IMG/VR virus record: IMGVR_UViG_3300017971_000292
Source of the DNA: a virus
Length of the DNA: 64,000 bases
Reading direction: 5' to 3' (one strand)
In this document: piece after piece, positions 1-64,000 of the stretch
Position numbering within the stretch: position 1 is the stretch's first letter
Layout: every line of letters begins with the position of its first letter
Position numbers and translations under genes: made by a program
The notes under the pieces: generated by a model
Told to the model about the DNA's origin: nothing
The model's database searches: none
The model's input: the letters and a program-made list of their open reading frames with translations, nothing else

Positions 1-90
1 AGGCCGAGGGCCGGCTCGTAGTATTGAAGGTCACGAGACCCGTCTTGGTTGATCGATACGATTTTCTGCATAATATCTGATTGGGATTGG

Positions 91-115
91 GGTTGCGGTT
101 GCGGTTGCGGTTGCG
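91..115. repeat. Tandem hexamer repeat (GGTTGC)x4
   Basis: Sequence ggttgcggttgcggttgcggttgcg read directly. It lies just 3' of the minus-strand ORF that ends at 121. Confidence 0.8.
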
Positions 116-120
116 CCCGA

Positions 121-375
121 TTACTTCCAGGCAGTGAGCTTGGCCTGACGACGGGCCGGGAACGTGATTGTGGCCGTGTGGCCCTTGATCTGCTTGACGT
201 CGACCTCGACCGTGCCGTGGTATCCGGTTGCGCGGATCCGACCGCCGTTCGGGACGTTCGCCAAGATCTCGGCATGGCAGGCTTTTGCTTGAGCCTCCAG
301 GCCGCGTTGAGTGTCGTGGATTGCGCGGAGCCGGAGCACCGCTTGTTGGACCTTCGCTTTTGTGTTTTTGTTCAT
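121..375 (-). CDS. Hypothetical small protein (84 aa)
   Basis: ORF in the six-frame track with a plausible ATG. It has no recognisable motifs and overlaps a spurious plus-strand ORF. Confidence 0.35.
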   Translation of the reverse strand: MNKNTKAKVQQAVLRLRAIHDTQRGLEAQAKACHAEILANVPNGGRIRATGYHGTVEVDVKQIKGHTATITFPARRQAKLTAWK

Positions 376-427
376 AAGATTCAGTCGATGGTTAGAATGT
401 GTCTACGGATTTTCGTGCTGTCAACAA

Positions 428-967
428 TCAATCTTCAGTGCGGAACTGGGCAAAATCGTAGCCCGAGGCGTCGTCATATATCGGCACATCCAGGAGCTCA
501 GCCAGCCGCTCGGCGTGCTTCACGTGCTCGTACGTGTTCTCGCAGCAGCCGCACCCTTCCGAGCGCATGTAGTCGGCGACTGCCCGGCGTATGAGTGCGA
601 TGTTCGGCGGGTCGATGGGCGTCGCCCGGGGGCACTTGGGGAGGTCATCCTCCTGGCGGCCGAGCACCCATACGATGGATTTCTGCTTGGTCTCGGGTGA
701 CACGCGGGTGCCGCCATTCTGGATCTTCCCGGCCCGCAGCAGCGGCCGAAACCTGGAGCTGGCGTTGACACGCTTGACGCCCGTCCGGTTGCAGAACTCC
801 AGGGAGGTCAGCCCGTCCGGATACACCTTCTCGAGCTCCCTGAGGATCATTCGGTCGAGCCGGCCGCGAGCTCCGGACTGGTTGATGGAGGCTGCCGCCT
901 GGTGTGAGGTTGCCGGGTCGGTGCCCCGGGCGGTACTCGGTGGTCCTGCGTAGTTTGGGTCAATCAT
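428..967 (-). CDS. Hypothetical protein, possible winged-helix DNA-binding protein (179 aa)
   Basis: ORF track. The central segment LDRMILRELEKVYPDGLTSLEFCNRTGVKRVNASSRF looks like a winged helix. This is a low-confidence functional guess. Confidence 0.5.
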   Translation of the reverse strand: MIDPNYAGPPSTARGTDPATSHQAAASINQSGARGRLDRMILRELEKVYPDGLTSLEFCNRTGVKRVNASSRFRPLLRAGKIQNGGTRVSPETKQKSIVWVLGRQEDDLPKCPRATPIDPPNIALIRRAVADYMRSEGCGCCENTYEHVKHAERLAELLDVPIYDDASGYDFAQFRTED

Positions 968-1211
968 CTTTGGGTCCGGGTGCTGAGTTGTTCGCGTTAA
1001 GCGCCACGATGTACATGGCAGCCATAACCACCCCGCCCACGGCAGCCATGAGTTGGGCGTGCCCCTCGTGTCCTATCAATTGTTCAAGTGACCCTGCACA
1101 AGAGGCAAGCAAGAACACCACGGTGATTCGGTATAGTTTCGTCATTTGATTCCTGAGTGTGCGAGCCGGGAGAGTGACAGCCCTTTGTAGCATCCGTCGT
1201 GGACGCGGCAT
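960..1211 (-). CDS. Small membrane protein; the true start is probably the internal Met near 1145 (MTKLYRITVVFLLASC...)
   Basis: Two hydrophobic helices (VVFLLASCAGSL and AAVGGVVMAAMYIVAL) in the ORF-track protein. Confidence 0.4.
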   Translation of the reverse strand: MPRPRRMLQRAVTLPARTLRNQMTKLYRITVVFLLASCAGSLEQLIGHEGHAQLMAAVGGVVMAAMYIVALNANNSAPGPKDD

Positions 1212-1447
1212 GCTGCGCGGAGCCGGCGGCGGAGCCAGCTGTTCAGATACTCCTCGGCGTCGCTGTCGACGCGGGTGATCCCCTCCTCGCGGCAGATCTG
1301 CCGGAGTTGGGCCTTGTTTATGAACGCAGGCTGCGCTCGTTTTATTTCGGCGGGCATGTGATCAGTTGGATGGTGTCCTTGTAGGTTCTGCGGTAACCCC
1401 CCGCGTCGCCGATGATCTTCATTACCAGCGAGATCGGGTGCGGACAA
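1142..1447 (-). CDS. Hypothetical protein; the likely start is the internal Met near 1357
   Basis: ORF track. It is contiguous with neighbouring minus-strand genes and has no motif. Confidence 0.35.
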   Translation of the reverse strand: MSAPDLAGNEDHRRRGGLPQNLQGHHPTDHMPAEIKRAQPAFINKAQLRQICREEGITRVDSDAEEYLNSWLRRRLRAACRVHDGCYKGLSLSRLAHSGIK

Positions 1448-1584
1448 ATGTAGGTGATGTCCTCATTGCCGGGCATGACAATCACCGTACTTTTGAAGTC
1501 GTCCGATGAACTAATCGACTCGACGCCCGCGAGGTTGATCGCGATGTTCCGCCCCTCGTGCTTGTAGCATAGGAATTGGTTCAT
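1342..1584 (-). CDS. Hypothetical protein (~80 aa, start MNQFLCYKHEGRN...)
   Basis: Its ATG at 1584 sits directly after the stop of the upstream 366-aa gene (TAACATG), which suggests translational coupling. Confidence 0.45.
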   Translation of the reverse strand: MNQFLCYKHEGRNIAINLAGVESISSSDDFKSTVIVMPGNEDITYICPHPISLVMKIIGDAGGYRRTYKDTIQLITCPPK

Positions 1585-1585
1585 G

Positions 1586-2686: not shown

Positions 2687-2708
2687 TCTGATTTACTTTT
2701 TTCTATGG

Positions 2709-2870: not shown

Positions 2871-3041
2871 CGTTGAGTTGTTCCTTCATCGATAGGTTGG
2901 CCCGGCGGAGCCGGTGCCGTCGACCGAGGGCACAATAGGGGCAGGACCCGTGGACTCGGCATGTAGCGTCAAGCGCCTTGGTTCCACGGTACGGCTTGCG
3001 CCGCTCCTTCCCGTGCTTGATGGCTTTGGCCAAACTCATTT
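2860..3041 (-). CDS. Small Cys-rich (zinc-ribbon-like) protein (60 aa, MSLAKAIKHGKERRKPYRGTKALDATCRVHGSCPYCALGRRHR...)
   Basis: C-x4-C ... C-x2-C spacing. The start ATGA overlaps the stop of the upstream gene. Confidence 0.45.
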
Positions 3042-3215: not shown

Positions 3216-3221
3216 AAATTG

Positions 3222-3739: not shown

Positions 3740-3742
3740 CTA

Positions 3743-4459
3743 TCAATCGAACTTTATTTTGCACGAACGACGGACCACCCGGGCGACCGCCCACGGGTTC
3801 CACTGGAGGGCGATCAACTCATTCCATTGCCTGGCATACTCTGGCAACGCCGTGCGCGAATAGAACCGGAGCTCTGCTTCCCACTCTTGGCGGAGCCGGT
3901 AGGCGGACGCCAGTAGCGAGCTCTGGAGCGTCCGGGCGATCTCCAGCTTGGTGGCCGGGCGACAATAGCGTCCGATCCGACGCACCCACCGGTTGGGCTT
4001 GTACTCGCGCTTTGGGTGTGGGTATGGTTCGCGAAATGTACTCCGCCTGAGCTTACCAGATTGACGCTCCCGCAGCTCACGCCACGATCTCCGCCCCGCT
4101 TCCCTGAGCTCGAGCTCTCGCGCCCGTCGAACCTCTGCGGCTGCCTTCTCGGCCCTCCTCGCCTCTCGTTCCATCACGGACTTGAGGTACCACCCCTTGG
4201 TGTGCAGCTGCTTGAGCAGGTCAACAGCCTCAGTGAATTCCGGAGTCCCGACGTCGCGAAGCGTGAATGGCGCTGGCTCGGGTATGTAGTCCTTCGTCCT
4301 GCGGCCAGGAATCCATTTGCCGGGTTTGTCCTTGGGTGTGCGATAGCGGGAAAGCCCTTTGCGCTCGAACAGCAGGACCGGGAAGTCCTTGACCGAGCCC
4401 CGTAACATTGGGTCGAAGTCCCGGGTCGGATACGGATAGGTTGAGATCTTGTCTTGCAT
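3743..4459 (-). CDS. Hypothetical, highly basic Arg-rich protein (238 aa)
   Basis: Long ORF with an R/E-rich coiled region. It has no catalytic motif. Confidence 0.65.
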   Translation of the reverse strand: MQDKISTYPYPTRDFDPMLRGSVKDFPVLLFERKGLSRYRTPKDKPGKWIPGRRTKDYIPEPAPFTLRDVGTPEFTEAVDLLKQLHTKGWYLKSVMEREARRAEKAAAEVRRARELELREAGRRSWRELRERQSGKLRRSTFREPYPHPKREYKPNRWVRRIGRYCRPATKLEIARTLQSSLLASAYRLRQEWEAELRFYSRTALPEYARQWNELIALQWNPWAVARVVRRSCKIKFD

Positions 4460-4462
4460 AGG

Positions 4463-5506: not shown

Positions 5507-5904
5507 TCGCTGAGGGTTACGTTGTCGATGACGGAGGCCAGGTTCCCCGCGCGGAGCCGGAGCTCGGCCAGCCGGGCACGCATAGTGTCGATCTCGTGCG
5601 AGGTCCCGGAACACTGCTGCTGCACAGCACCCAAGAGCTCCTTGGCCTGCTGCTTAGCCTGGGCGATCAGCCGGTCAGCCTGGCACTTCGCCTTGTGGAC
5701 GATAGCCTGACCCTCGTTCTCACGCTCAGCCACCCAATCCTCGTGAGTGTAGGCGCGGGTCTCGACCGGCATGTCCGAGTGCATGGCCTGCTGGATATGC
5801 GGCAGCTGCTCGCGCAGCCACTGCCCGCAGTAGGAGCCGGTGTCGTGGGCACTCAGGATAGTAGCGAGTTCAGCGATGGCTCTCAGTTCTTCGTTTTTGG
5901 TCAT
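5503..5904 (-). CDS. Hypothetical protein (~133 aa from MTKNEELRAIAELATIL...)
   Basis: ORF-track frame 5503..6075 trimmed to an internal Met. It is coupled to the downstream gene. Confidence 0.5.
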   Translation of the reverse strand: MTKNEELRAIAELATILSAHDTGSYCGQWLREQLPHIQQAMHSDMPVETRAYTHEDWVAERENEGQAIVHKAKCQADRLIAQAKQQAKELLGAVQQQCSGTSHEIDTMRARLAELRLRAGNLASVIDNVTLSE

Positions 5905-6214: not shown

Positions 6215-7093
6215 CTACGCGTTGATGGGGGAGAGCTTAGCGCGGATGAACGCAACTTGGAGAGCCATTATGAGGGCCGCGCGATTGAACCCGGCGGCGT
6301 CGTCCGTCGTCTCCATCTTAAGGAGCGCGTCGAGCACCGTGCGGGCTTCGTCGACGGGCAGCGTGTCGTTGTGGACCGTACCATCTCGCTCGCTCCACAG
6401 GACATTCAGCTGGCTGATAGGTTGGGCGGAGTAGTCGGCGTGGTTGGTTAGGTCCTCGTCCGGCGCGCTATCCTCGCCGGCCCGCTCGTTGATCTTCTCC
6501 GCCTCATAGTCGGCCGCGTCCTGCTCATCCTGAGCGGCAGCGGCAGCCTTCTCGGCGTCGCTGATAGCCTCTTGCTCCTCCACGTCGGTCGGCCAGACCT
6601 GCACTTTGGTCGGGCGATTGCCGAATCCGAAATGCGGCTCCTTGGGCGTGATGGCCACGTTGAGTGTGATGCGGAGGTCCTTGATATCTACCTCACGCTC
6701 CATCGATGTGTCGTCGACGATCTGCGGGACACTCATCCATATCTTGTTGCCCTCGTCGGTTAGGAACAGCCCCTTGAGGGAGTCCCCGTAGGCCGTATGC
6801 ACCTCTTTGTAGTGGACGAACCGGCCGACAACCTCCTGGCGTCCTGCGCGGAGCCGGGGAGCGTTGGCGAGCTTAGCCTCCTCGGCCTGGCGGGCAGCTG
6901 TCCGCTCCTCGAACCGGTCGATCTGCTTGGCCACGCAGCGGGTATAGGCGTCGACCTGGCGTGTGCTAAACTCATCGACAGTAGCACCTTCGCGGGCCTG
7001 CCGGGTGATGTCCTGCAGGAATTCGCTCCAGTTGATGGCCGATGGATGGTCTTGGGCCCAGCTGATGGCCTCGGTGAATGATAGTGTGCTCAT
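6215..7093 (-). CDS. Hypothetical acidic protein (292 aa). It is the first gene of the leftward block.
   Basis: Long ORF, D/E-rich. The ATCCCCTaattgAGGGGAT palindrome lies ~45 nt upstream. Confidence 0.7.
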   Translation of the reverse strand: MSTLSFTEAISWAQDHPSAINWSEFLQDITRQAREGATVDEFSTRQVDAYTRCVAKQIDRFEERTAARQAEEAKLANAPRLRAGRQEVVGRFVHYKEVHTAYGDSLKGLFLTDEGNKIWMSVPQIVDDTSMEREVDIKDLRITLNVAITPKEPHFGFGNRPTKVQVWPTDVEEQEAISDAEKAAAAAQDEQDAADYEAEKINERAGEDSAPDEDLTNHADYSAQPISQLNVLWSERDGTVHNDTLPVDEARTVLDALLKMETTDDAAGFNRAALIMALQVAFIRAKLSPINA

Positions 7094-7157: not shown

Positions 7158-7334
7158 TCGGAAAAGTTGGGCTCGTTTAGCGCGCTACGCTTTTCGACCG
7201 GCTCCGCCGGCTCCGCTACTTGGCGCATAAACCAGCGCGCGCCTCTCAAGCTCCTTCTGATATTAACTCGTGCCATGCAGTCAAGATACGCATCTGGTGG
7301 AAAAGCGCAAGCACTTTTCTAAACTAAATTTTGG

Positions 7335-7357
7335 GCCGCGCTAGGCGCGTTTTTTGA
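7335..7357 (+). terminator. Rho-independent terminator-like hairpin GCCGCGC-TAG-GCGCG followed by TTTTTT
   Basis: GC stem plus a T6 run read directly on the plus strand. Confidence 0.5.
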
Positions 7358-7462
7358 TTTCAGGTGGGAAGGTACAGGAAGCCAACGAGTTGTAGAAATT
7401 AAGGGTCAAAAACAGTAGTGGGAATAGGTCAAATGTTTATCGGGGGAAAGCGTTGCATCTTA

Positions 7463-7560
7463 TAGGAATGAAAGTGTGAAAGAGAAATGCGTAAAAGGTC
7501 TTTACGCATTTCTCTTTCGTAAATCGTTTCCTTAGGAAAGAACTATATACTATAGGGGGA
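7463..7560 (+). repeat. Conserved ~95-bp intergenic element, copy 1. It contains a 15-bp-stem hairpin (AGAGAAATGCGTAAA...TTTACGCATTTCTCT), the palindrome TTCCTTAGGAA and the sequence CTATATACTATAGGGGGAG.
   Basis: Near-identical to the copy at 12540..12632. The 3' end matches the T7 class III promoter core ACTATAGGGAGA. Confidence 0.7.
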
Positions 7561-7993
7561 GCTGAGGGTTGTCGTTTTTACAAAATGAGTGGGTTGATTG
7601 ATCCCGGCGGAGCCGGTGACATGGGGGTGATAGGCGGAGCCGGTCGGCCGACTGCCTGGATGGGTCACCTGCAGCGGCCAGGCCACCCTCCTGCCATCCT
7701 GGGGCCCGGGAGGTCCCGAGCCCCCTCCTGCGCCGGCCGAGCCCGTAGCGGTCCATCTGGCGATCCCTAACCCCTGGAACGTGTGCCCACGCGAGACGCA
7801 AAGGCGTACCGGACATTCCCAGGGACGTCGATTAGCGTGAGATTGTCGTAAGTCGTTGATATTACGATGACTTGGGTGGACATGCCCTAAACTTGCCAAT
7901 ATGTCCCAGGTCATCAAACGCCGTGCCAGTTGGGTGTATGCCCCCAATTTTGACTTGATTGGGTGAATACACCCAACTATCTTGAGCAGACGG

Positions 7994-8032: not shown

Positions 8033-8725
8033 ATGAGCGAACTGCATCAAAATGACCAGGCTGAGCAAAAAGAGCCATCACCCCCTCAGCAGATCACAGA
8101 CCAAGATCGCAACAAAATGCAAGGAGCGCCGCCGATGGCCGCCGCGTTCCTCACCTATATCGAGACGGGCGATCTCCTGACCACAGCCGAGCTCCACGGC
8201 ATTCCGATCAAGACGTTGACCGCCAAAGCCACGCGTGACCGATGGGCACAGCTGCGCGAGGTCGCCGTATCCAAGGGCACGCTGGCCGTCGCCCGGAGTG
8301 TGGAGCGTGGCCTGGGCCCGGACGCCGCCAAGCTTGAGTTGGTGCACCGCAATAGGGAGCGCAACTTCCGGCTGGCTGAGCAGATGCGGGATGACCTACA
8401 GGACCTCGTGCAGGGCATCCGGGATGGCTCCCTGGAGATCGAGGAAGCCAAGCTCCACAAGGGGGCTGTGATACGCTACACGCGCAAGCCCAGTATTGGG
8501 GATCGTGTCGCCCTCGTGAATTATGCCAGCCAGGTGGCCGCCCTTGGCTACACGGCCCTCGGGGACGCCCCAGCATCGCGTAGCGCCGACACAGCCGCCG
8601 GGAAGGGCCCGGGTGGGGGTGCCGGAACCGCGCCTCAAATAAACATCGTCTTGCCGTTCTCCATCGCAAAGCCGAGGGACGAGGCCGGCTCCGCCGGCTC
8701 CGCCGGGCCGGTCGTTGATGTGTAA
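8033..8725 (+). CDS. Hypothetical protein (230 aa from MSELHQ...), possible HTH DNA-binding protein
   Basis: ORF 7982..8725 trimmed to an internal Met. The segment FLTYIETGDLLTTAELHGIPIKTLTAKATRDRW is HTH-like. The C-terminus is Gly/Ala-rich. Confidence 0.55.
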   Translation: MSELHQNDQAEQKEPSPPQQITDQDRNKMQGAPPMAAAFLTYIETGDLLTTAELHGIPIKTLTAKATRDRWAQLREVAVSKGTLAVARSVERGLGPDAAKLELVHRNRERNFRLAEQMRDDLQDLVQGIRDGSLEIEEAKLHKGAVIRYTRKPSIGDRVALVNYASQVAALGYTALGDAPASRSADTAAGKGPGGGAGTAPQINIVLPFSIAKPRDEAGSAGSAGPVVDV

Positions 8726-12136: not shown

Positions 12137-12516
12137 TGCAAAAACCCAAAGTCACACTCCGAGAACGCGTCATCCCTGAAGGGGCCCCCGAAGACCCAAA
12201 CCCACTGGCCGGCAGCTGGGAAACCGTAGCTGAGGTCCGCGCGGCCAGTAAGATGGTTGTCACAGACACCCTCCTGAAGTCCCCAAAGCTCGGTGAGGCG
12301 ATTAAAGACGAGGCCAGGCGTGTCGCCCTCACCGAGCTCAACAGAGAGCTCTACGGCCCCGTGGTGGCCCGGCTCCGCCGGTTACAGCAGCAGATGACGG
12401 GTCTCCACCCGACAGGTGGCGGGGATTACGAGCGATACAGAGTATTCGACCGGATTTCAGGTGAGCTCTCCACCCTATTAGCGGAGCTTGAAGACATTAG
12501 AAGCTACGTAGAGTAG
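12137..12516 (+). CDS. Hypothetical protein (126 aa from MQKPKVTLRER...). It ends with a TAG stop.
   Basis: Frame of ORF 12007..12516 trimmed to the first Met after the upstream stop. Confidence 0.5.
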
Positions 12517-12539: not shown

Positions 12540-12632
12540 GAAACGAAAGTGTGAAAGCGAAATGCGTAAAGACCTTTTACGCATTTCTCTTTCACAAAAC
12601 GATTCCTAAGGAATAATCTATTACTATAAGGG
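12540..12632 (+). repeat. Conserved ~95-bp intergenic element, copy 2. It has the same hairpin, the palindrome TTCCTAAGGAA and the sequence CTATTACTATAAGGGCGG.
   Basis: Flanks align with copy 1. The hairpin loop and palindrome centre are inverted relative to copy 1. It is followed by the inverted pair CCGGCTCCGC ... GCGGAGCCGG. Confidence 0.7.
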
Positions 12633-12833
12633 CGGCCGGCTCCGCTGAGATTTCAAAAGCGAGACTCGGCGGAGCCGGTGAAACAGAATACGTGAAATTC
12701 ATGTTGACGCACGAGAGCCGTATCGGCTATGTTGAGGTCACGGCACAAGACCTACTACGACGTGGACACGCACGGGGCTCAGCCGAGGGAAACTGGAGTC
12801 GGGGAGACCCCACCCCGTGCGTGGTCGTAACAG

Positions 12834-50117: not shown

Positions 50118-50825
50118 TCATTCTTTGGGGACTGGGGTCCTGAGTGCGGCCTCTTCCTTATAGCGGTTCTTGCGCTCCAGGATGTACCACCCGGCGACTC
50201 CGATGAACACGAGGAGTGCAAACCACATGGCGTTATCGACAACCGCCTTACTCATCGCCGGGGCAATCACGCATGCGCCTGCAGCTGCTCCCAGGATCAA
50301 GCGGCCCTCTTTGGACAAGCCCATTGGGCGGCCGTACGGAGTGAACGAAAAAACGAGCAGCCCAAGGGGGAGGAGCCCCAATAGCGGGAGCCACTTCACT
50401 GAATTCATGAACGCCTTGACCTCCTCGGCCTTGGCCTTACCCTTGGCCCAAATGGATCGGGTCTCCGTGTTGTCCTGAGCCGGCCCGATGATCGTCTCGG
50501 TTGTCTCCTCAGTCCGGCTCCGCACGACCCCATTACTGGGCGTCGACAAGAGCGCGAAGTTTGTCGGGAAGTGGACGGTCTCTGTGACGATGGTGTGCGT
50601 CTGGCGAGTCTCGGAGGCTGGGTCTTCAGATTGGGTGACTGTCTGAGTCAGGTTCGTACCCTGGCGGTCGGTACGGGCGGAGCCGGGGGATAACTTGGGT
50701 TCTGGCCGCTGGCAGCTCGTGCAGACAAGGACGATGAGGACCAGTAGATTATGCCTTAGCGTTGTCATCAGCGTGGAGTCGTTTAGCCAGCGGGCATTTA
50801 CCTGACTGAGCTTTTTCGCATTCAC
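50118..50825 (-). CDS. Membrane protein with an N-terminal anchor and three C-terminal transmembrane helices (235 aa; start may be Met at ~50768)
   Basis: Hydrophobic segments LLVLIVLVCTSC, LLGLLPLGLLVFSF, LILGAAAGACVIAPA and MWFALLVFIGVAGWYIL. Confidence 0.55.
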   Translation of the reverse strand: MNAKKLSQVNARWLNDSTLMTTLRHNLLVLIVLVCTSCQRPEPKLSPGSARTDRQGTNLTQTVTQSEDPASETRQTHTIVTETVHFPTNFALLSTPSNGVVRSRTEETTETIIGPAQDNTETRSIWAKGKAKAEEVKAFMNSVKWLPLLGLLPLGLLVFSFTPYGRPMGLSKEGRLILGAAAGACVIAPAMSKAVVDNAMWFALLVFIGVAGWYILERKNRYKEEAALRTPVPKE

Positions 50826-53276: not shown

Positions 53277-55104
53277 ACGGGATGTCGACGGGGGTTGGCT
53301 CTTTGACGTAGCAACTGGCAAAACCACCCTCTACAGCGAGGGGGATCCCCTCTGCCCACTCGGGCGGAGTACGAAGGATCCGCGCCATCTCAACGAGCGC
53401 CTCCATTTTGGATTTGTCGTCCTTCACCTCGACAATGACCTCATCGTGCGATGTGAAGCGGACTGGCAGACCGGCTTTCCAGCAGGCCACGGCCCTTGAA
53501 GCCATGATATCACGCGCCACGCGTTGCACCAAGTTCTCGGTCAAGAACCCGCCCCACACACGACTGCAGATATTGTTTCCTCGGAAGTCGCCCTTCACCT
53601 TCAACGTCTGAATTCCGGACTGGCCCGTCTTCCTGCAGTTGAAGTGGCGGAGCTTCTCACCACTCGGTAGATCCAAGACCAGCGTCTTCGACGGGGCCCG
53701 ACAGGCGCGCTTGAGCGACGTGTCCAACTCAGACCACAGTGAGGTGACGCCCGGGTTGAGTGAGCGGAAAGCCTCGACGTCCGCCTTAGCGACGTCCGGG
53801 TCAAGGTCCTGGCCGCCGTAGTTCCGGTACTTGTTCGCGCCCATCCCGTAACCAAGACCGAGGACCTTGTTCTTGGTCTTCGTGTAGAGGTCCAGATTCG
53901 TCTTCTTCAGCGCACCTTCCCTGGGATCCCACTGCCCCCACTGGATGGCAAACGCCTCATACAACGGGTAGCCCTTGACCAGCATGTCCAGCAGCGCCTG
54001 GTTGCCGGTCAACCAGTGGAGCACCCGGGGCTCAATCTGCGCGTAATCAAGAATGCAAAAGACGTTGCCCGGATCGGGCGTCAGCCAATTGCGCGGCATG
54101 ATCTCGACGACCTCGTCACCGCCGACTGGGAACGCCAGCGGATCCCGGGGGAGGTTCTGGACGTTCACGCCTTGGCTCGACCAACGCCGAGTATGGGGGG
54201 CCCCACAATAGAGGAGATCGAGCGGCATGCGCCCGTCCCTCTCACGCACTCGGCGGAGCACCGCCTGGGCCTTCTCGATAAATCCGTTGGCTGAGCGGTA
54301 AATCTGGACAGCCGTGATGACTTCGTTGAGCGCCGGGTACTGCTTACAGAGTTCGATGCAGTCCTCGTTGTCTTTGGCCACGCTGCGCGGAGCCGGGATG
54401 CCCGACTGGACGCACCATTCCTTGAGTAGCTTAGGGCTCAGCAGCGGGCCGTCCTCGCACCAAGGGATACGTCTGCCGGCTTCCCACTTGGCCTCCTCCA
54501 TCGCGCTGATGTCCTCGTGCACGAGCTCTTGATCAACATACAACCCCTGCCGGTTCTGCCAGCGAGTCATTGCCGCAATGTCCTGCTCGACCGAAGAGAA
54601 CGGGTGGTGCTTCGCGAGCTTCATCAGGCACTCCGCCGCGTCGACCGAATCGGCAAGACAGTACTCGAGGATGGCTTCCTGACGCTCCTTAGGTAGGTCC
54701 TTATAGTGGACCCCGCTCATCTCGTCGCGCAGGGTCTTGTCGACCTTGATGTTCAGGAGGGTCTTGGCCAGTCCAGCTAAATGCCTCGGGAGCTGAGCGG
54801 AGGCACCCCAGTCAAGGATGCATTTCCAGTCATTGGCTGAAGTGATCCCGAGGTGTTCCGTCCAGCCCTGGTCGAAGTTCGAGTTCGCTGCCCAGCATTG
54901 GATGTGGGGGTCTTTGCAGATCTGCTCAACCTCTGGAAGCATCTCCTCAATTGTGCCCACGGCCTGAACTCCGTCCTCGAGCCCCACGACTGAAACCATG
55001 TAAGCATAGGCGTCACGGAAGTAGTTGTCGTTGCCCTGGAGAGATGCCGAAGGCCCATCTTTTTTGTGGTAGTAAGACTCATAGTCAAGGATGTAGTTCT
55101 TCAT
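53272..55104 (-). CDS. Family-A DNA polymerase (Pol I-like, 610 aa)
   Basis: Motif A CILDYAQIEPRVL, motif B KTKNKVLGLGYGMGANKY and motif C FTSHDEVIVEV. The N-terminal region is exonuclease-like. Confidence 0.85.
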   Translation of the reverse strand: MKNYILDYESYYHKKDGPSASLQGNDNYFRDAYAYMVSVVGLEDGVQAVGTIEEMLPEVEQICKDPHIQCWAANSNFDQGWTEHLGITSANDWKCILDWGASAQLPRHLAGLAKTLLNIKVDKTLRDEMSGVHYKDLPKERQEAILEYCLADSVDAAECLMKLAKHHPFSSVEQDIAAMTRWQNRQGLYVDQELVHEDISAMEEAKWEAGRRIPWCEDGPLLSPKLLKEWCVQSGIPAPRSVAKDNEDCIELCKQYPALNEVITAVQIYRSANGFIEKAQAVLRRVRERDGRMPLDLLYCGAPHTRRWSSQGVNVQNLPRDPLAFPVGGDEVVEIMPRNWLTPDPGNVFCILDYAQIEPRVLHWLTGNQALLDMLVKGYPLYEAFAIQWGQWDPREGALKKTNLDLYTKTKNKVLGLGYGMGANKYRNYGGQDLDPDVAKADVEAFRSLNPGVTSLWSELDTSLKRACRAPSKTLVLDLPSGEKLRHFNCRKTGQSGIQTLKVKGDFRGNNICSRVWGGFLTENLVQRVARDIMASRAVACWKAGLPVRFTSHDEVIVEVKDDKSKMEALVEMARILRTPPEWAEGIPLAVEGGFASCYVKEPTPVDIPL

Positions 55105-57359: not shown

Positions 57360-58422
57360 TGATCATCGGGTGGATGTCGTCGCAATAATCCCGGGCATCG
57401 GGGCCGATGGGCTCGCGGCGGCATAGCGCATCAGGCGACCAGACCTGGAAGTTCCCTCGCGATTTGCGCGTGAGCTTCCACGTCCAGAAGTACTTCCAGA
57501 GGATCGTCTTCTTGACGATCACCCCGTGTTCGTCCTTCACCGGGTTGTTCTCCTCGTCGAGCACGGGCTCCGTGAGGAGATTCCGGGTCGCTGAGATGAT
57601 CGCCTGGGAGAAGTCCTTATAGGCCCCACCGTTGGCCCAATACTTCGCCGGGGCGTAGAGCTTACCGTCGAGCTCCGTGTCAAAGAACGAGCTGTCGGCG
57701 AACTTCTCGGGGAGGTTGTCTGGCTTCTCCACCAGCAGATTATGGATAGCCCCAGCACGCCATTTGCCGGGCCCGTAGCCGACGGTCCCACCGACTTCCA
57801 TGAGCGCCGCCTTCGAGTAGACCATCTCCGGCATTGCCCCGTCATCCTGCTCCTCCTGAGTCAGGGTCTCACGGTAGAACTTGACGAGGTGCAGCGGGAT
57901 CACCCGCAACGTCAGGAACGCGTTCTTGTCGGACAGGTCCTGCGGAGGGTACGCGAGCACATCCCCACCCAGGATCACCGACCCGACCGAGAACTCCGCG
58001 CTCAGCTTCCCGGAACCTTGGACAACCTTCAGCTCGGGGAACTTGATGTCTTCAAGGTCGAAGTCTCCGACGATAGCCCCGCCGGAAGACGTGTAGAGTG
58101 CCTGGCCAAGCGGCGAGGACAGGGAGGAAACCCCCCGGGTGGCGACCGCTGTGGTCTTCTCCGGCTCTTCCTCGACCGACGCACGAACCGGCGGAGCCGG
58201 TGCTTGTGGCTTCATAGGAGGCGGCGGAGCCGGTTGGGCCGGGTCGGGCTGACCCGCGTCAATGACCGTCTGGCGAGCCATCGCGTCGGTCTCTTCAGCG
58301 GTCATAGGACGCGCCTGCGCGATCTGCTCAGCCACGCCGGGCTGCTTAGAGGTGGTCGGTTGGGATTCCTCCGACGTAGGGGTCGGAGCCGCTTTTGGTG
58401 CTACTTTTCTACGTATTGCCAT
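57328..58422 (-). CDS. Hypothetical protein with Pro-rich N-terminus (364 aa)
   Basis: ORF track. Its position between primase and nuclease suggests a replication or recombination accessory protein (an SSB or annealing protein is possible but unproven). Confidence 0.55.
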   Translation of the reverse strand: MAIRRKVAPKAAPTPTSEESQPTTSKQPGVAEQIAQARPMTAEETDAMARQTVIDAGQPDPAQPAPPPPMKPQAPAPPVRASVEEEPEKTTAVATRGVSSLSSPLGQALYTSSGGAIVGDFDLEDIKFPELKVVQGSGKLSAEFSVGSVILGGDVLAYPPQDLSDKNAFLTLRVIPLHLVKFYRETLTQEEQDDGAMPEMVYSKAALMEVGGTVGYGPGKWRAGAIHNLLVEKPDNLPEKFADSSFFDTELDGKLYAPAKYWANGGAYKDFSQAIISATRNLLTEPVLDEENNPVKDEHGVIVKKTILWKYFWTWKLTRKSRGNFQVWSPDALCRREPIGPDARDYCDDIHPMISGGAPAAASE

Positions 58423-59770: not shown

Positions 59771-61171
59771 TCAGACCGTAAAGTCAGAATCTTCCAATGT
59801 CAAGTCATTGAAGTTGTCTATACCGTCGAGCTTAGTTTTGAGGCGCTTATAGTAACCTTCCTCGGCAGTCCCACGCAGCGCGAGGATCCGCTGACGACTG
59901 AAGGCTCCGCCTACACGCCACACTCGACCGAAGAACTGCTTGGCCTTCTTGCCAGACAGTCCGGGCGAGTAAAAGACTTCCCGTGGCACGGTAGGGTGCT
60001 GGAGGTTGAGCCCCTCCGCCCCGGCCGTCGCCTGAACGATAAACACGTCGAGCTCGTCGTTCGTGAATTTTCGCTTCACTTCGGTCTTTTGCGTCTCATT
60101 GCACCTTCCATCGTAGACATCGACTGAGCAGTCCACCCGCTTCATAGCGTCAAACATCTCGTCGATGGACTTCGTGAAGTTGAGGGCGATGACCACCGCT
60201 GACCCATTCTGCATCGCGTCGATTGATAGGTCCCGAATAGACCCCAGCTTCATCAGCTCCAAGGCTTGGCGGAGCCGGAGAGACTCCTCGAGCCAGTTCT
60301 GACGCTGCTTCGCGCGCTCCGCCTGATCTGCATACTCCGAGATCATCTGGTTCAGGTGCTGGAGCCGTCCGGCAACAGTCTGCGCGTCCGCATGGTCGGT
60401 GGTGATCAGATAGGGCTCGATCAGCGTCTTCGGGAAGCCAGGAATGAGGTCCCGGTCCATCCGATAGAGGCGGCCATCCAACTCACTTTTTACCTTGTCG
60501 ATAGCGAGTTTCTGCTTGCGGGGGTCCTGGGTCCAGTCCAAGCCGCCGAAGACCCCCGGCGTGCACCCGTGCTTCATCGCCCAATTGATGAAGTTGTCAC
60601 GCTTCTTGTTCAGCTTGTGGAGGTCGAGAGCGTAGCCCGCCGCCTTCATGTCCAGCGTCGACTCCAGGAGCGTCGCGCTCATAATCAGCACCCGGGATCC
60701 CTTGCGCTTAGCCCCGATCAGCATCTTGGACTCCATCGAGGTCATACCGCCACAACGGTGGCCCTCGTCGAAGACGACCAGCGCGAACTTCCTCTTGAGC
60801 TCCATGAACGAGCCGGTCCCCCACTTCTTCTCCTCGAACCACTCGGTCTCTGATAGGTTGATCGGGCGGCCATCCTTGTCCTCCCCGACCTTGCGCCGCC
60901 TACCCTTGGCCCGCTCATAGTGGACGATCTCTGCAGGCACACCCATGATCGACGCAGCGTCCCCCCACTGGCCACGCGTGCCGAGAGGGCAGATGATTAG
61001 CGGGGTGACCCCCAGTGCCCGGGCGACGGCCAACGCTGTGAACGTCTTGCCCGTCCCGAGATCTGAAGTGTCCGCGCAGCACCCGTCAACGGCCAACGCC
61101 TGGGCCAGGTTACGCGCGTGCTCGAACTGCCAGGGCTTGAGCGGCAGTCGGTCAATTACTGAAAGATCCAT
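59771..61171 (-). CDS. DExH/DEAD-box superfamily-2 helicase (466 aa)
   Basis: Motif I DLGTGKT, motif II VVFDEGHR and a C-terminal helicase domain. Confidence 0.8.
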   Translation of the reverse strand: MDLSVIDRLPLKPWQFEHARNLAQALAVDGCCADTSDLGTGKTFTALAVARALGVTPLIICPLGTRGQWGDAASIMGVPAEIVHYERAKGRRRKVGEDKDGRPINLSETEWFEEKKWGTGSFMELKRKFALVVFDEGHRCGGMTSMESKMLIGAKRKGSRVLIMSATLLESTLDMKAAGYALDLHKLNKKRDNFINWAMKHGCTPGVFGGLDWTQDPRKQKLAIDKVKSELDGRLYRMDRDLIPGFPKTLIEPYLITTDHADAQTVAGRLQHLNQMISEYADQAERAKQRQNWLEESLRLRQALELMKLGSIRDLSIDAMQNGSAVVIALNFTKSIDEMFDAMKRVDCSVDVYDGRCNETQKTEVKRKFTNDELDVFIVQATAGAEGLNLQHPTVPREVFYSPGLSGKKAKQFFGRVWRVGGAFSRQRILALRGTAEEGYYKRLKTKLDGIDNFNDLTLEDSDFTV

Positions 61172-61727
61172 GTGCGTGCTTGAATAGCTCTGCGGTTAGG
61201 TAGTCGAGTGTCGCCCATACCGGCTGCTCACCGCCGGAATTCCACAGTCGTGGGACGAGAACTGCGCCTCCACCGTGCGCCCGGAACATCGCGACCTGAT
61301 CCTCCGAATCGTCGACGAGCACTGTATCTGGACGGGCCAATAGCCACTTTTCACGGGTGAGCACTCGGGGGCCCATATCCTTGAACCCGTGGCGATGGAG
61401 CCACTCGTGCTTGCCCTGCGGGGCGTAGGGCGTCCACGAGGCGTCCGTGCAGATGCCCACAACGTGGCCCAAGCGTTTCAGGCGTTTCATCAACTCAAAA
61501 AGCTGACGCCCGAAAGGCGTCCACGGCATGTCCACCCAGAACCGTACCTGCTGGTCGAGGCAGAGTTCGCGGAGCCGGTCGACCGACACGCCAAAGGTGT
61601 GCTCGATGCGGTAGTCACCAGCATCAAGGTCCTGTGGGAACTTTAATCCGAGGAGCGCCGCACAGCTGGCATGCCAGTCGCAGAGCACTCCGTCCATATC
61701 GAATAGAAATCTTGTCTTCTTCATAGT
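61152..61727 (-). CDS. HAD-superfamily 5'(3')-deoxyribonucleotidase-like hydrolase
   Basis: Motif I FLFDMDGVLCDW (DxDG). The start is trimmed from ORF 61152..61793 to Met MKKTRFLF. Confidence 0.7.
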   Translation of the reverse strand, partial: TMKKTRFLFDMDGVLCDWHASCAALLGLKFPQDLDAGDYRIEHTFGVSVDRLRELCLDQQVRFWVDMPWTPFGRQLFELMKRLKRLGHVVGICTDASWTPYAPQGKHEWLHRHGFKDMGPRVLTREKWLLARPDTVLVDDSEDQVAMFRAHGGGAVLVPRLWNSGGEQPVWATLDYLTAELFKHAHGSFSN

Positions 61728-61862
61728 TGTAATAGGTCGCGCGGCTGCTGGATTAGCCCACAAGAGCCAGTAGGGGGAAGGCGTCACACACATCCAGCTT
61801 AGCGACGGGGCCGCGCTCTCCGTTCATGAAATCCCCCATACTATAGGCTTGGAATGCAAAAG

Positions 61863-62141: not shown

Positions 62142-62439
62142 CTGTTTTGCTGATTTCTGTTGTTAGTGTTAAGTCACGGAAAGCTCGGTCGGGGATGCCC
62201 GTCCACCCCTCTGAATGCTTCAGAATCGCCCTGTGCGCGTCCGCAGGCTTGAGGAGGTACTCGCGTCCCCTACCACTCAGATCGAGCCGTAGCGTGCGAG
62301 CCTCGCGCAGCGTGAGGGCTTCCTGGGGGTCGAGGAGCCGGACCAACATGCCTACACGGGTGAATTGGTCGCCGCTGGGGGTCGGGCAGCTGAATCGAAA
62401 GCTTTTCCCGATGCTCTTTTTCAATGTCGTTGCGTTCAT
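61903..62439 (-). CDS. Hypothetical protein (only the N-terminal ~90 aa look protein-like)
   Basis: ORF track. The C-terminal part is Arg/Pro-rich low complexity and overlaps the 61863..62141 frame. Confidence 0.35.
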   Translation of the reverse strand: MNATTLKKSIGKSFRFSCPTPSGDQFTRVGMLVRLLDPQEALTLREARTLRLDLSGRGREYLLKPADAHRAILKHSEGWTGIPDRAFRDLTLTTEISKTDEDEHIPTGEGRPAASSTATEDRTGDSAHGTPEGVPRVQGGDAEDPVQANRPRRQRRRRAPRGANAAKGRVPRVPRRKP

Positions 62440-62447
62440 CGTAAATT

Positions 62448-62478
62448 GAGGTGCCGGCCTCTCCCGGCTGTCACGGTG
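62448..62478. repeat. Iteron-like direct repeat copy 1 (AGGTGCCGGCCTCTCCCGGCTGTCAC)
   Basis: A 25/26-nt match to 62694..62724. It lies in a 360-bp non-coding gap. Confidence 0.75.
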
Positions 62479-62693
62479 TCTGATTTGCCACAGTTGCTCG
62501 CCCAGCCGTTTGGCGTGATCAGCTCGCCTGGCCTCAGCTCATGGTCGGTCGTGTCACCGTTTGGACCTTAGCTTCGTCAGGGTCTCCCCTGAGTTGAGCC
62601 GTCATCGCGAGGTATCCCCATCAGGGGCTTACACTTTCGGTTGTCGACCCTACTCGCGTCCTTCGCTCGCCGACTTTGATGCACGGCTCAACT

Positions 62694-62724
62694 CAAGGTG
62701 CCGGTCTCTCCCGGCTGTCACCAC
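62694..62724. repeat. Iteron-like direct repeat copy 2, followed by the degenerate third copy CGGTCTCTCCCCGCCGTCAAG at 62741..62762
   Basis: Read directly. The inverted repeats CCCCTGAGTTGAGCC / GGCTCAACTCAAGG and CCCCTGA / TCAGGGG lie between the copies. Confidence 0.75.
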
Positions 62725-62797
62725 AGCTATGCGGTCCTCGCGGTCTCTCCCCGCCGTCAAGCCAGCTAACGATTGGCTTTCATCGTCTGCGCATATT

Positions 62798-63976
62798 CTA
62801 ACGGGCGAGAGTCATCAGCTTGCCCGCCCGGGCACTCAGGTTGGCCGAATCGCCAGCGAACTTGATGTCACGGGCGACGGCCGTCAATCCGTTGATGAAG
62901 TCCCAGATGCTCTCGCATCGGCCTTCCTCGCGGATCGCGGTCTCGACGGCGGCCAGGACTTCCTTGCGGGTGAACTTCACACCCTTCATAGGGTTGCGGG
63001 CCCAGTCGATGAATTCCTCGAGCTTCTCGCTCACGCTCCACGGCAGCTTGGCCAGGGAGGCGGCTTTGATCGCCTCATAGACCGCCGTCCGGGTGTCGGC
63101 TTTCACGAACTCGCGGAGCCGGGGGATCAGGATATTCTGGAAGTGCTCCCGGGCCTTGCCACGGTGGACGATGGAGATCTCCTCAAGATCCTCCATGCCC
63201 CAGATCTGCAGGTTGCCGCAGGTGACGCGGAACATGAACGTGCGGCTGATGATCGTCTTCACCCGGACTTCCGAGTTGGATAGGATGATGCCCCGATACA
63301 TCTGGTCACGCTCGCACGGACCTTCGACCAGGGAGCCCCCGTCGATCATATACATCCACACGTCGCGGTCGCTCGCATAGAGGCCAGACACGTTGCCGTT
63401 CCAGTCCTTGGGGGCGAAGAACGGCTTGTCCGCTTCAGCGGTGACCGCCTGCATGACCTCGACCAGCTCGTGATCGAACACGCGGCTGTAGGAGGTCGAC
63501 GTAACCGCTTGGATCTGGTTGGTGTCGTTCCGGTGATAGAACGCGCTGTGCTTAGGATCGAACACCTCGCCTGCGCCGGCCGCCTTCAACATCGCCTCGT
63601 CGCGAGACCGGCGAATCCGCCCCAACGCGTGGTTGAGGTTCTGCTGCACTAACTCGCCAGGGAGCTTGCGCATGTATCCGGCGGGCACGCCGAGCTCACT
63701 GCAGAGCTGGCCAAACCCAAGGTTGGTGAACGCTTGCGGATGATCCATCCCCGGGATGATGACCTCCAGGTGCTCGCCGTTCCCGACAACGTGGCAATCG
63801 GCCAGCTGAGCCTCCTCAGTGGATGAGAATGCCGCCCGCTGCTTGGTCGCAGCGTAGAGATCCTCAAGGCTGCGGTAGCACTGGTCGTCGGGGCGGTTGG
63901 CCCATTGGTTGTACGCTACCAGGGAATGGCCGACGTTGTCTTTGCGGGTGATGGTGACGTTTGCTTGATCAGTCAT
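62798..63976 (-). CDS. DUF932-like phage/plasmid protein (392 aa)
   Basis: Overall resemblance to the TIGR03299/DUF932 family (N-terminal YNQWAN..., central VTCGNLQIWG region). The call is made from memory, with moderate confidence. Confidence 0.55.
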   Translation of the reverse strand: MTDQANVTITRKDNVGHSLVAYNQWANRPDDQCYRSLEDLYAATKQRAAFSSTEEAQLADCHVVGNGEHLEVIIPGMDHPQAFTNLGFGQLCSELGVPAGYMRKLPGELVQQNLNHALGRIRRSRDEAMLKAAGAGEVFDPKHSAFYHRNDTNQIQAVTSTSYSRVFDHELVEVMQAVTAEADKPFFAPKDWNGNVSGLYASDRDVWMYMIDGGSLVEGPCERDQMYRGIILSNSEVRVKTIISRTFMFRVTCGNLQIWGMEDLEEISIVHRGKAREHFQNILIPRLREFVKADTRTAVYEAIKAASLAKLPWSVSEKLEEFIDWARNPMKGVKFTRKEVLAAVETAIREEGRCESIWDFINGLTAVARDIKFAGDSANLSARAGKLMTLAR

Positions 63977-64000
63977 TTTGTTATTTTCGGTTTAGGTTTT

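Follow-up and report, generated by a model that had tools for sequence, protein, structure and literature searches.

The window analysed here (64,000 bases) covers most of a circular map of 66,781 bp. As the initial annotation had assumed, the genome is that of a phage, in this case an uncultivated one, encoding an SU10-type portal and capsid, a terminase, PolA and a primase-helicase. It also carries genes for a DUF2800/PD-(D/E)XK nuclease, an MmcB-like nuclease and helicases, and the nucleotide-metabolism genes specify a MazZ-like dATP/dGTP diphosphohydrolase and an NT5C-like protein. Weak HTH matches were obtained for 428-967 and 52091-53359, and 1586-2686 gave a borderline match to a herpesvirus origin-binding protein. 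The 62 proteins yielded no methyltransferase or recognisable nickase, a search of the phage proteins for a repressor or an integrase found none, and neither an Rfam family nor an identifiable sRNA gene was detected.

An exact search identified 34 perfect copies of the 10-mer GCGGAGCCGG, 20 on the + strand and 14 on the - strand as CCGGCTCCGC. The initial annotation had counted at least about 30 (roughly 20 and 11 in the two orientations), missing the copies at 40369 (-), 46293 (+) and 48995 (+); its positions were right to within 1-12 bases, with 35927 and 50689 corresponding to 35916 and 50677. The remaining 2.8 kb of the circular map contains no further copies. As the same sequence, copies included, was recovered in independent JGI, ENA and Logan assemblies, the copies are not an assembly artefact. 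Dinucleotide shuffles yielded an expectation of 0.47 copies (shuffle maximum of 2) and a Markov-3 model 0.66; masking the copies before training gave 0.52-0.58 (Markov-3 and Markov-5). The earlier estimate of less than one copy is borne out across these models (0.47-0.66), and the enrichment holds to order 5 with the copies masked. GCGGAGCCGG ranked first among 750 words, occurring in 28 separate places compared to 5 for the next unrelated word, and no other 10-mer in the window behaved in this way. All 30 one-mismatch variants were at background. Inspection of the flanks, proposed earlier as a check on the motif, did not extend the core, the flanking sequence being essentially random. The overall density was 0.5-0.8/kb. 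Close pairs were overrepresented, with 6 gaps of <60 bp compared to 1.04 expected (P = 0.0006), and their spacings differed (9, 27, 33, 33 and 55 bp). All of the pairs reported earlier are real, namely two tandem (7198/7207 and 8685/8694), two direct (7607/7634 and 58191/58224) and one inverted (12636/12669).

The density peaks at 3.8/kb in the divergent early non-coding control region. At its left edge, copies at 7198 and 7207 overlap with a 9-bp offset (7198..7216, -) and read as GCGGAGCCGG along leftward transcription. On the other side of an AT-rich stretch (7230..7600, 35-49% GC) lies a direct pair (7607..7643, +) with copies at 7607 and 7634, each reading GGCGGAGCCGGT; 7604-7646 forms a 14-nt perfect inverted repeat with the 7198..7216 pair. 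Within the AT-rich stretch, which may serve as a control region or an origin, are a terminator-like hairpin (7337-7349) and a segment that we term cassette A (7466..7560, +), in which a hairpin with a 21-bp stem is followed by TTCCTTAGGAA and then by TACTATA, which resembles a promoter -10 element. The direct pair follows cassette A at a distance of 50-80 nt and precedes the rightward early genes. A duplicate of this segment, cassette B (12541..12635, +), lies where the rightward early genes give way to the late operon. Directly after it is an inverted pair (12636..12678, with 12636 on the - and 12669 on the + strand) predicted to form a 19-bp stem-loop (-35.8 kcal/mol, z = -7), such that each copy of the duplicated hairpin/TACTATA cassette is followed by a motif pair. 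The 12669 (+) and 7607 copies have CGGCGGAGCCGGTGA in common.

Leftward genes contain + strand copies at 325..334 (gene 121-375; CCGGCTCCGC on the sense strand, encoding L-RLR), 1217..1226 (small gene 1142-1357, a public gene call; R-RLR), 3890..3899 (gene 3743-4459; Y-RLR), 5551..5560 (gene 5503-6075; L-RLR) and 6848..6857 (gene 6215-7093, the first of the leftward early operon; P-RLR), all with the C-rich form on the sense strand. A one-mismatch copy, GCGGAGCCAG, is present at 1229, just after the 1217..1226 copy. The copy at 2905..2914 (+) lies between small leftward early genes and is oriented as the intragenic copies there. C-rich-sense copies on the + strand were also found at 50677..50686 (leftward gene 50118-50825; PGSA), 54387..54396 (family-A DNA polymerase gene 53272-55104; PAPR), 58191 and 58224 (direct pair 58191..58233 in gene 57328-58422; PAPP twice), 60269..60278 (helicase gene 59771-61171; L-RLR), 61569..61578 (NT5C-like gene 61152-61793; D-RLR) and 63113..63122 (392-aa gene 62798-63976; P-RLR). 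The 50514..50523 copy (-), also in gene 50118-50825 and encoding V-RSR, is the single G-rich-sense copy of the early and replication blocks.

Among the rightward early genes, overlapping copies at 8685 and 8694 (8685..8703, -; 9-bp offset; C-rich sense, AGSAGSA) lie at the 3' end of the first gene (8135-8725), and another copy is at 12369..12378 (-; ORF 12007-12516; C-rich sense, A-RLR). The interval from 12701 to 35900, containing the terminase, portal, capsid and tail module, is a motif desert with 1 copy in 23.2 kb (23907..23916, -; gene 23746-24150; C-rich sense, A-RLR). Beyond it, a 751-aa gene (34168-36423) contains paired copies in opposite orientations 345 bp apart, at 35916..35925 (-; C-rich sense, A-RLR) and 36261..36270 (+; G-rich sense, M-RSR). 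Additional copies are at 38694..38703 (+; small gene 38641-38829; G-rich sense, R-RSR), 40369..40378 (-; gene 39762-40445; C-rich sense, PGSA) and 40789..40798 (+; gene 40455-40964; G-rich sense, GGAG). A 2060-aa gene (42300-48482) contains four, at 46029..46038 (-; C-rich sense, PAPR), 46293..46302 (+; G-rich sense, AEPE), 47770..47779 (+; G-rich sense, GGAG) and, 55 bp from the latter, 47825..47834 (-; C-rich sense, L-RLR). The copy at 48995..49004 (+; gene 48830-49354) is G-rich on the sense strand and encodes AEPD.

The initial annotation had suggested a test for orientation bias, which gave a divided result. The early and replication genes are strongly biased (16:1), with the C-rich form on the sense strand, while both orientations are used in the late operon (5:6), and the leader-region copies are oriented opposite to the gene-body copies. 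Relative to the DNA as a whole, the orientations of 27 of the 34 copies can be described by two opposed arms with switches at ~7.1 kb and ~36 kb, but this polarity was not significant after allowing for breakpoint fitting (P = 0.14). Most G-rich-sense copies have a C-rich partner ≤450 nt away in the same transcription unit, a statistic that was marginal.

Selection on the word is apparent from codon choice. Of 39 peptide sites able to encode GCGGAGCCGG synonymously, 24 do so, compared to 0.8 expected from codon usage. The fraction rises to 23 of 29 outside the terminase-to-tail module, and falls to 6 of 16 for G-rich-sense opportunities and to 1 of 10 compatible peptide sites in the desert. 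The compatible peptides are themselves ~2.3-fold enriched. As the composition and codon usage of the desert are like those of the rest of the genome, the missing word looks functional rather than the consequence of a recent import. The coding copies are spread over six frame/strand combinations, which agrees with the earlier observation of three frames and both strands and excludes a single repeated protein motif in one frame; a further seven copies are intergenic. R-L-R written in common codons as CGG-CTC-CGC does account for 12 copies. Nevertheless, chance, base composition or a repeated protein motif has virtually no probability as the cause of the excess, since ~0.5 copies were expected, codon usage predicts 0.8 of the 24 and no other 10-mer in the window is comparable. 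We conclude that, as proposed initially, GCGGAGCCGG is clearly kept by selection at the DNA level and is written into genes via synonymous codons. The near-saturation of these opportunities suggests selection for copy number.

Family relatives of the phage contain neither GCGGAGCCGG nor a related word. At the site of the 58191/58224 pair, a relative that is 74.5% identical (L065) has the 58191 copy exactly kept and the 58224 copy absent, i.e. one of two homologous sites. In an inverted-pair scan of bacterial loci, none of the 120 listed was enriched (background of 0.044/kb), and no species had multiple matches among those listed. As the matches listed included no enriched bacterial locus and the relatives lack GCGGAGCCGG, nothing was gained in favour of the suggestion that the word is an uptake-signal-like or Chi-like host signature. 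GCGGAGCCGG is a strictly defined and asymmetric word of 10 bp that, among the relatives and loci listed, appears private to one phage lineage.

When the observed enrichment, exactness, codon saturation, regional distribution, pairing, orientation bias in early and replication genes and absence from relatives are considered together, the anatomy of the copies appears to fit best with a binding site for a phage protein, one of the options raised initially. We tentatively propose from sequence that GCGGAGCCGG may be a multi-copy asymmetric recognition site for one phage-encoded or phage-specific DNA-binding factor, stoperator- or iteron-like. The reader would be a protein, possibly encoded by the phage. 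Its principal sites would be the paired copies in control regions, i.e. the two inverted pairs on either side of the AT-rich stretch that separates the divergent early operons, plus the pair that follows the duplicated promoter-like cassette at the start of the late operon. Many secondary sites would lie within genes of the early, replication and distal-late groups, at all positions where the encoded protein permits the word. A monomer-type site could serve control regions and, inside transcription units, act as polar or titrating sites; binding might cause a polar block of RNA polymerase or helicase, confer origin function or titrate the factor. Several features argue against a binding site. 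Ordinary operators need no copy-number selection, protein-binding sites usually tolerate some degeneracy and GCGGAGCCGG has none, both orientations occur in the late operon, and leader copies oppose gene-body copies. Variable pair spacings argue against one fixed dimer geometry, and no reader protein was recognised beyond the weak HTH and borderline origin-binding matches.

Cluster A mycobacteriophages contain 20-30 asymmetric repressor sites per genome, oriented with transcription (PMC6550527). The phage word resembles these stoperators (L5, Bxb1) in consisting of tens of short asymmetric sites (34 here), in its presence in control regions and inside transcription units with a transcription-related orientation bias, and in its richness in early/replication genes and lineage specificity (PMC6550527). 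However, stoperators are 13-14 bp, somewhat degenerate, mostly between genes and all syn-oriented, whereas the phage word is 10 bp, perfectly exact, mostly intragenic via codon choice and in both orientations in the late operon. Moreover, stoperators belong to temperate phages, in which they vary together with a repressor that can be identified and relatives carry related motifs, whereas neither a repressor nor an integrase was found here, and the relatives have no related word that could have evolved alongside a regulator. Initiator iterons, DnaA boxes and HSV UL9 boxes are also short and asymmetric, flank an AT-rich region in direct or inverted pairs and have extra copies elsewhere; the location of the pairs between divergent operons is likewise iteron-like. 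Iterons are normally confined to the origin, however, and we know of no precedent for thirty extra intragenic copies of this type under codon-level selection. For the UL9-type comparison, the origin-binding protein match is borderline.

Other readers of the word can be envisaged. It is possible, though unlikely, that GCGGAGCCGG is a Chi-like polar signal read on DNA by a translocating helicase-nuclease, which would be attenuated so that phage DNA is protected. Candidates for the enzyme are a host RecBCD- or AddAB-type complex and the PD-(D/E)XK exonuclease with the helicases that the phage itself encodes; a word of 10 nt, scarce in host DNA, would label a small genome privately as 'self'. Like Chi, GCGGAGCCGG is exact, asymmetric, G-rich, frame-independent and over-represented, with a codon saturation implying 'the more the better', and several known Chi sequences also begin with GCGG. 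The two opposed arms would supply polarity, the nuclease and helicase genes are present, and absence from relatives would suit host or lineage specificity. Against this, known Chi sites are 5-8 nt, host-enzyme-defined and enriched in the host genome, whereas GCGGAGCCGG is 10 nt and of far higher density, with no enriched host genome among the matches listed. Its polarity relative to DNA ends is only putative (P = 0.14 as above), 23 kb would be left unprotected, and inverted close pairs and the link to promoter cassettes would be unexplained. We regard it as rather improbable that the phage was imprinted, by residence or selection in its host, with a DUS/USS-like or other highly iterated host-genome word. 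Neisseria DUS and Pasteurellaceae USS elements have a comparable 9-12-nt exact core, a density of ~0.5-1 per kb, occurrence in coding DNA via biased codons and peptides and occasional hairpin-forming inverted pairs, of which there is one here; relatives lacking GCGGAGCCGG presumably reside in other hosts. However, those elements pervade the genome of a competent host without transcription-related orientation bias, which conflicts with the 16:1 ratio in early genes, the empty but compositionally native 23-kb module and the lack of an enriched genome or multi-match species among the 120 bacterial loci listed. In L340, a siphovirus contig that is unrelated but similar in oligonucleotide signature, GCGGAGCCGG and its 1-nt shift are the top 10-mers, but the signal was not significant once the selecting pair was removed. 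A second apparent carrier was rejected as a compositional look-alike.

At the RNA level, CCGGCUCCGC could tag early and replication mRNAs for cleavage or decay, or for pairing with complementary GCGGAGCCGG in leader transcripts and distal-late mRNAs, resulting in temporal control comparable to the use of GGAG by T4 RegB. The sense-strand bias, the near-absence from the highly expressed late core, the exactness expected of a 10-nt seed, the complementary form in the transcribed orientation of leaders, the nearby C-rich partners and the strong 5'-proximal stem-loop of the 12636/12669 pair are all consistent with this mechanism. We nonetheless consider it quite unlikely, as selection of G-rich-sense copies is not predicted by a one-strand RNA tag, a 10-bp duplex is short for RNase III, no Rfam family or sRNA gene was found and the partner statistic was marginal. 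Very unlikely is a phage enzyme that nicks or modifies bases at GCGGAGCCGG. Codon-level maximisation and absence from the late core would be unexplained, the 62 proteins include no methyltransferase or recognisable nickase, and copies are on both strands, unlike the sequence-specific single-strand interruptions of T5, phiKMV and tf phages, which are on one strand, number few to ~twenty per genome and, to our knowledge, are not maximised by codon choice. Those interruptions do resemble the word in that a conserved short sequence recurs along the genome with enzyme-like exactness, a recognition mode that would account for the absolute exactness here. CTCCGG is present in the phiKMV nicked-strand consensus, and the MazZ-like and NT5C-like genes may point to an unusual DNA chemistry.

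The initial annotation had picked out the 10-mer GCGGAGCCGG by eye as over-represented, and Markov-corrected k-mer analysis bore this out: an exact search of the window found 34 copies, 20 of them on the + strand and 14 on the −, compared with 0.47–0.66 expected. The lower expectation came from dinucleotide-preserving shuffles, in which the largest value was 2, and the higher one from a Markov-3 model; models trained with the copies masked gave 0.52 (Markov-3) and 0.58 (Markov-5). This word was the most over-represented k-mer of the window. It ranked first among 750 recurrent 10-mers, occurring in 28 separate places; its own overlapping shifts aside, the next word had 5. The positions reported by the initial annotation were good to within a dozen bases, and the copies at 40369 (−), 46293 (+) and 48995 (+) had been missed. 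In the literature the string was found in primers only.

Invariance of all ten positions among these copies holds by construction; the informative result is the count of mismatch variants. Each of the 30 single-mismatch variants of GCGGAGCCGG occurred 0–3 times, i.e. at background, and all 10 positions are therefore required. The sole variant hinting at an excess was GCGGAGCCAG, with 3 copies compared with 0.44 expected (at 1229, 8824 and 37475, the first being 2 bases past the 1217 copy of the word); these may represent sites that are decaying or emerging. The flanks were essentially random apart from G or C at position −1 and a pyrimidine at position −3, each in 29 of 34 copies, preferences that arise in part from the commonest reading frame. 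Background-level variants together with random flanks define GCGGAGCCGG as a sharply bounded, non-palindromic 10-mer, as opposed to a core embedded in a longer repeat or a mobile element.

Within called genes the word occurred in all three frames and both orientations. Peptide sites able to encode it through synonymous codons (opportunities) were used in 24 of 39 cases, compared with 0.8 predicted from codon usage, and 10 of the 12 x-R-L-R peptide sites carried it. The spread over frames and the usage of opportunities exclude a protein motif or composition as the explanation, and so uphold the earlier proposal that selection acts on DNA rather than on one protein motif in one frame. Word-compatible peptides were also ~2.3-fold commoner than in residue-shuffled proteins (39 compared with ~17), indicating that the word has shaped protein sequences as well.

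Leftward genes for early functions and replication occupy 1–7.1 kb and 49.3–64 kb, and rightward genes, a short early set followed by the late operon, occupy 8.1–49.3 kb; a 1 kb divergent non-coding region lies between them at 7.1–8.1 kb. Word density was 0.53/kb overall and was highest in the divergent region (3.84 copies/kb), followed by the rightward early genes (1.10), the leftward early block (0.85), the distal late operon at 35.9–49.4 kb (0.74) and the replication block (0.55). The 23-kb terminase-portal-capsid-tail module at 12.7–35.9 kb contained a single copy (0.04 copies/kb). Outside this module the density was 0.8/kb and 23 of 29 opportunities (79%) were used, compared with 1 of 10 inside it; as ten compatible peptide sites are present, its emptiness does not result from missing opportunity. 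Recent import of the module was ruled out because its tetranucleotide signature (correlation of 0.67 within groups and 0.64 between the module and the rest), GC3 and codon preferences match those of the remaining genome. We conclude that strong selection at the DNA level for copy number operates in some regions and that there is none in another. Copies were also clustered, both closely (6 gaps <60 bp, 1.04 expected, P = 0.0006) and at wider range (13 gaps <450 bp, 7.1 expected, P = 0.008).

The sense strand of genes read CCGGCTCCGC, the C-rich reverse complement, 22 times and GCGGAGCCGG 8 times (P = 0.016, with gene blocks as the a-priori partition). This ratio was 16:1 for early and replication genes compared with 5:6 for the late operon (Fisher P = 0.007), establishing a transcription-related polarity of the word in the former. 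Early genes have the G-rich form on their template strand, against the local GC skew, so strand composition does not account for the orientation bias. The best two-breakpoint (two-arm) orientation model accommodated 27 of 34 copies; polarity of a replichore or DNA-ends type was non-significant after breakpoint optimization (permutation P = 0.14).

Copies of the word are paired at control regions. The divergent region contains two overlapping copies at 7198–7216 as well as a direct pair (7607/7634); together they make up perfect inverted repeats of 14 nt (CGACCGGCTCCGCC, GGCGGAGCCGGTCG). Between these repeats lie ~300 bp of 35–45% GC, and a block of 72–76% GC follows. The AT-rich part includes a 95-bp cassette (7466–7560) in which a 21-bp-stem hairpin is followed by the TTCCTTAGGAA palindrome and then TACTATA. 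A second copy of this cassette (12541–12635) marks the end of the early rightward genes and the start of the motif-free late module. From its sequence elements, the duplicated cassette looks like a terminator plus a phage promoter. A motif pair follows each cassette, and the pair at 12636/12669 forms a 19-bp stem-loop (−35.8 kcal/mol, z = −7). Five of the six leader copies read GCGGAGCCGG along outward transcription, on the non-template strand, which is the opposite of the gene-body rule. The 72–76% GC block (7600–7800) directly past the AT-rich control region is non-coding and includes, from 7625, an uncalled 48-codon ORF with GGAG ahead of it; the block may represent a structured RNA or a small gene. 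Further inverted repeats precede the first rightward gene, with 21-nt arms at 7928–7948/7958–7978 and 12-nt arms at 7894–7905/8016–8027; these repeats within 7894–8030 may be operators that have no relation to the 10-mer.

The phage is tailed and uncultivated. Its circular map measures 66,781 bp, of which the window represents 64,000 bases, and the 2.8 kb beyond the window contain no copy of GCGGAGCCGG. The same genome was present in JGI 3300017963, two ENA assemblies and Logan assemblies at 99.99% identity, and strain variation is consequently uninformative about the word. GenBank phages gave no nucleotide match to the window. Searches with the major capsid protein and primase-helicase placed the phage in a large family of ~60–70 kb phages. 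The ~20-kb loci of L028, L031 and L032 (relatives with capsids 66–74% identical) and L070 (primase-helicase 37% identical) contained 0–1 copies, and de novo k-mer searches found no equivalent word in these four. Two candidates for an analogous word were rejected: TGGAACGTCTC, present 11 times in L070/L071, is a coding tandem repeat with a 42-bp period, and the excess of GTTTAAAC in L028 and L032 reflects a palindrome counted double. The TGGAACGTCTC repeat lies in a tail-region gene (L070 19404–21223) and in k-mer statistics passes for an over-represented motif. The only close relative for comparison was a 4.9 kb contig (L065) with 74.5% nucleotide identity, in which the 58191 copy is kept exactly within poorly conserved surroundings and the 58224 copy is absent. 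A metagenome PolA scan recovered only marine relatives with ~28% identity. The word is real, exact and private to this lineage.

When species-representative genomes were scanned for closely spaced inverted pairs, at least 120 loci from diverse high-GC taxa were recovered, with one hairpin each; none of those listed was enriched (0.044/kb without the defining pair), a result with low power at Chi-like densities. A Spirochaetaceae MAG (L159) with 5 copies in 8 kb was rejected as host since a duplication spanning a scaffold gap accounts for two pairs, and the other listed loci had the density of a high-GC background. Five pair-pattern scans of IMG/VR yielded ~230 loci. One of these, the unrelated HK97-type contig IMGVR_UViG_3300003885_001289 (L320/L389/L390), had 9 copies and used 7 of 11 opportunities. 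It was rejected as a second carrier: the word ranked only 18th of 204 there, because many GC-rich 10-mers were equally saturated, and its signature is unrelated to that of the window (r = 0.09). An unrelated 12.7-kb siphovirus contig (L340, IMGVR_UViG_3300031760_001211) had as its top 10-mers the word itself and the version shifted by one base, with 5 copies of the word in a single orientation (390–10612) and a tetranucleotide signature correlation of r = 0.58 with the window. The signal was non-significant after discounting the selecting pair. This contig is a weak possibility for a second carrier, and it may derive from a phage of the same host.

Among the 62 phage proteins, Pfam, PHROGs and PADLOC searches detected no methyltransferase, HNH-type nickase, integrase, repressor or partition family; proteins of unknown function may conceal a repressor, integrase or partition protein. 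Weak HTH-like matches were obtained for the products of 428–967 and 52091–53359, and the 1586–2686 product gave a borderline match to the DNA-binding part of herpesvirus origin-binding protein (20.3 bits, cut-off 20). PDB sequence searches with two candidates, the 1586–2686 and 6215–7093 products, gave no support. These proteins are weak candidates for a reader or writer of the word.

The best explanation that we can propose is that the word would serve as a multi-copy asymmetric protein-binding site, the arrangement to which its anatomy comes closest. The one well-studied precedent is the repressor sites (stoperators) of Cluster A mycobacteriophages; iteron-flanked AT-rich origins are another. 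We put this forward tentatively because the fit to the precedents is imperfect. Repressor bound at stoperators blocks transcription elongation. Cluster A phages have 20–30 asymmetric, transcription-oriented sites of 13–14 bp, located both in promoters and inside transcription units (PMC6550527), comparable to the 34 asymmetric 10-mers in this phage in being tens of short sites without dyad symmetry. Here the orientation is strongly biased in early and replication genes, mixed in the late operon and reversed in the leaders. Stoperators are accompanied by a cognate immunity repressor and a temperate lifestyle (integrase or parABS), whereas none of these was found among the 62 proteins; related motifs co-vary with the repressor in their relatives, whereas L028, L031, L032 and L070 have none. 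Misfits of the protein-site reading are that no regulator was found, that relatives have no co-varying motif, that the word is perfectly exact and that the late operon is unpolarised. A further misfit is the codon saturation, which points to the number of sites, rather than their position, as what counts. We consider it unlikely that the word is a Chi-like nuclease-attenuating signal. Chi is over-represented and replication-polar in the host genome, its orientation matched to nuclease entry from DNA ends. It is an asymmetric 5–8-nt sequence read by RecBCD or AddAB, whereas all 10 positions are required here. The best two-arm model fitted 27 of 34 copies (P = 0.14).

An uptake-type word of the host would account for an exact 10-nt sequence at 0.53/kb overall with 79% usage of opportunities outside the empty module, and DUS/USS likewise have an exact 9–12-nt core at ~1 per kb, coding DNA included (0.53–0.8/kb here). 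DUS/USS are present in thousands of copies in the competent host's genome. We regard this explanation as very unlikely, given that DUS/USS lack systematic strand or orientation bias, unlike the 16:1 ratio in early and replication genes. The chance that the word acts at the RNA level, as a tag or pairing system in the form CCGGCUCCGC, is similarly slim. The word shares with RfaH ops elements a non-template-strand position, seen in 5 of 6 leader copies, and there is a loose resemblance between GGCGGAGCCGGTG and GGCGGTAGCGTG; but ops occurs once or twice per operon, in the leader, whereas here gene bodies contain 28 further copies, most of them on the template strand. A nick or modification target is the least probable of these readings; nick sites of the T5/phiKMV type are all on one strand, whereas the copies here are on both (20 + and 14 −). 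HIP1-type highly iterated palindromes differ in that GCGGAGCCGG is not its own reverse complement. Each known family considered thus fails in at least one tested defining feature, and the word is best filed with genome-wide recognition words.

It is also conceivable, though quite unlikely, that the word is a phage-private 'self' mark, read by a translocating enzyme or roadblock factor and thereby distinguishing or protecting phage DNA or organising polymerase traffic. A mark of this kind would be long enough at 10 nt to be nearly absent from host DNA and dense enough at ~1/kb for quick encounter. It would be a phage-owned analogue of Chi, or an organiser of polar polymerase traffic on the early/replication half, with the codon-level saturation as the footprint of selection for site number. 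We know of no described phage-owned genome-wide word system. Chi, KOPS, DUS/USS and stoperators are exact genome-wide words, each of which revealed a machine that reads DNA directionally. In this uncultivated phage ~80% of synonymous opportunities are used outside one module, relatives lack the word, and the copies centre on the early control region. The identity of the reader would provide a new principle of phage regulation or replication control or else, for a host system so far unknown, its first recognition word. The 10-mer can further serve as a handle for host assignment, pull-down of the binding factor and lineage tracking in metagenomes.

The structural genes of the phage encode an SU10-type portal, capsid and adaptor as well as a large terminase. 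Its replication and nuclease genes encode a family-A polymerase, a DUF5906 primase-helicase, a DUF2800/PD-(D/E)XK nuclease, an MmcB-like nuclease and endonuclease VII. A MazZ-like dATP/dGTP diphosphohydrolase (51124–51591) and an NT5C-like protein (nucleotidase, 61152–61793) were identified, no PurZ was detected in the phage beside them, and the relative L070 has a dNMP kinase instead; together this hints at non-canonical nucleotide metabolism in the phage family. The window contained no Rfam families and no tRNAs. A 2060-aa late protein (42300–48482) had no close homologue among 5.8 billion proteins, its own copies aside; the next matches were 25–27% identical across a quarter of its length. 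Within a putative scaffold gene (26571–27773) is a perfect in-frame 12-bp tandem array of AACCTGAGGCGA (26767–26860, 7.8 copies), at which every public contig of this phage breaks; its repeat-word count was 9 in one assembly (L025) and 7 in two others (L026 and L027) and the window. Logan contigs break also at the second cassette copy (12541–12635). A TTGCGG hexamer array (87–115, 4.8 copies) differs by one 6-bp unit from the JGI assembly (L066), and a perfect 7-bp tandem repeat of GTTTTTG (58429–58464, 5.1 copies) occupies the gap between a 364-aa gene and the DUF2800 nuclease gene.
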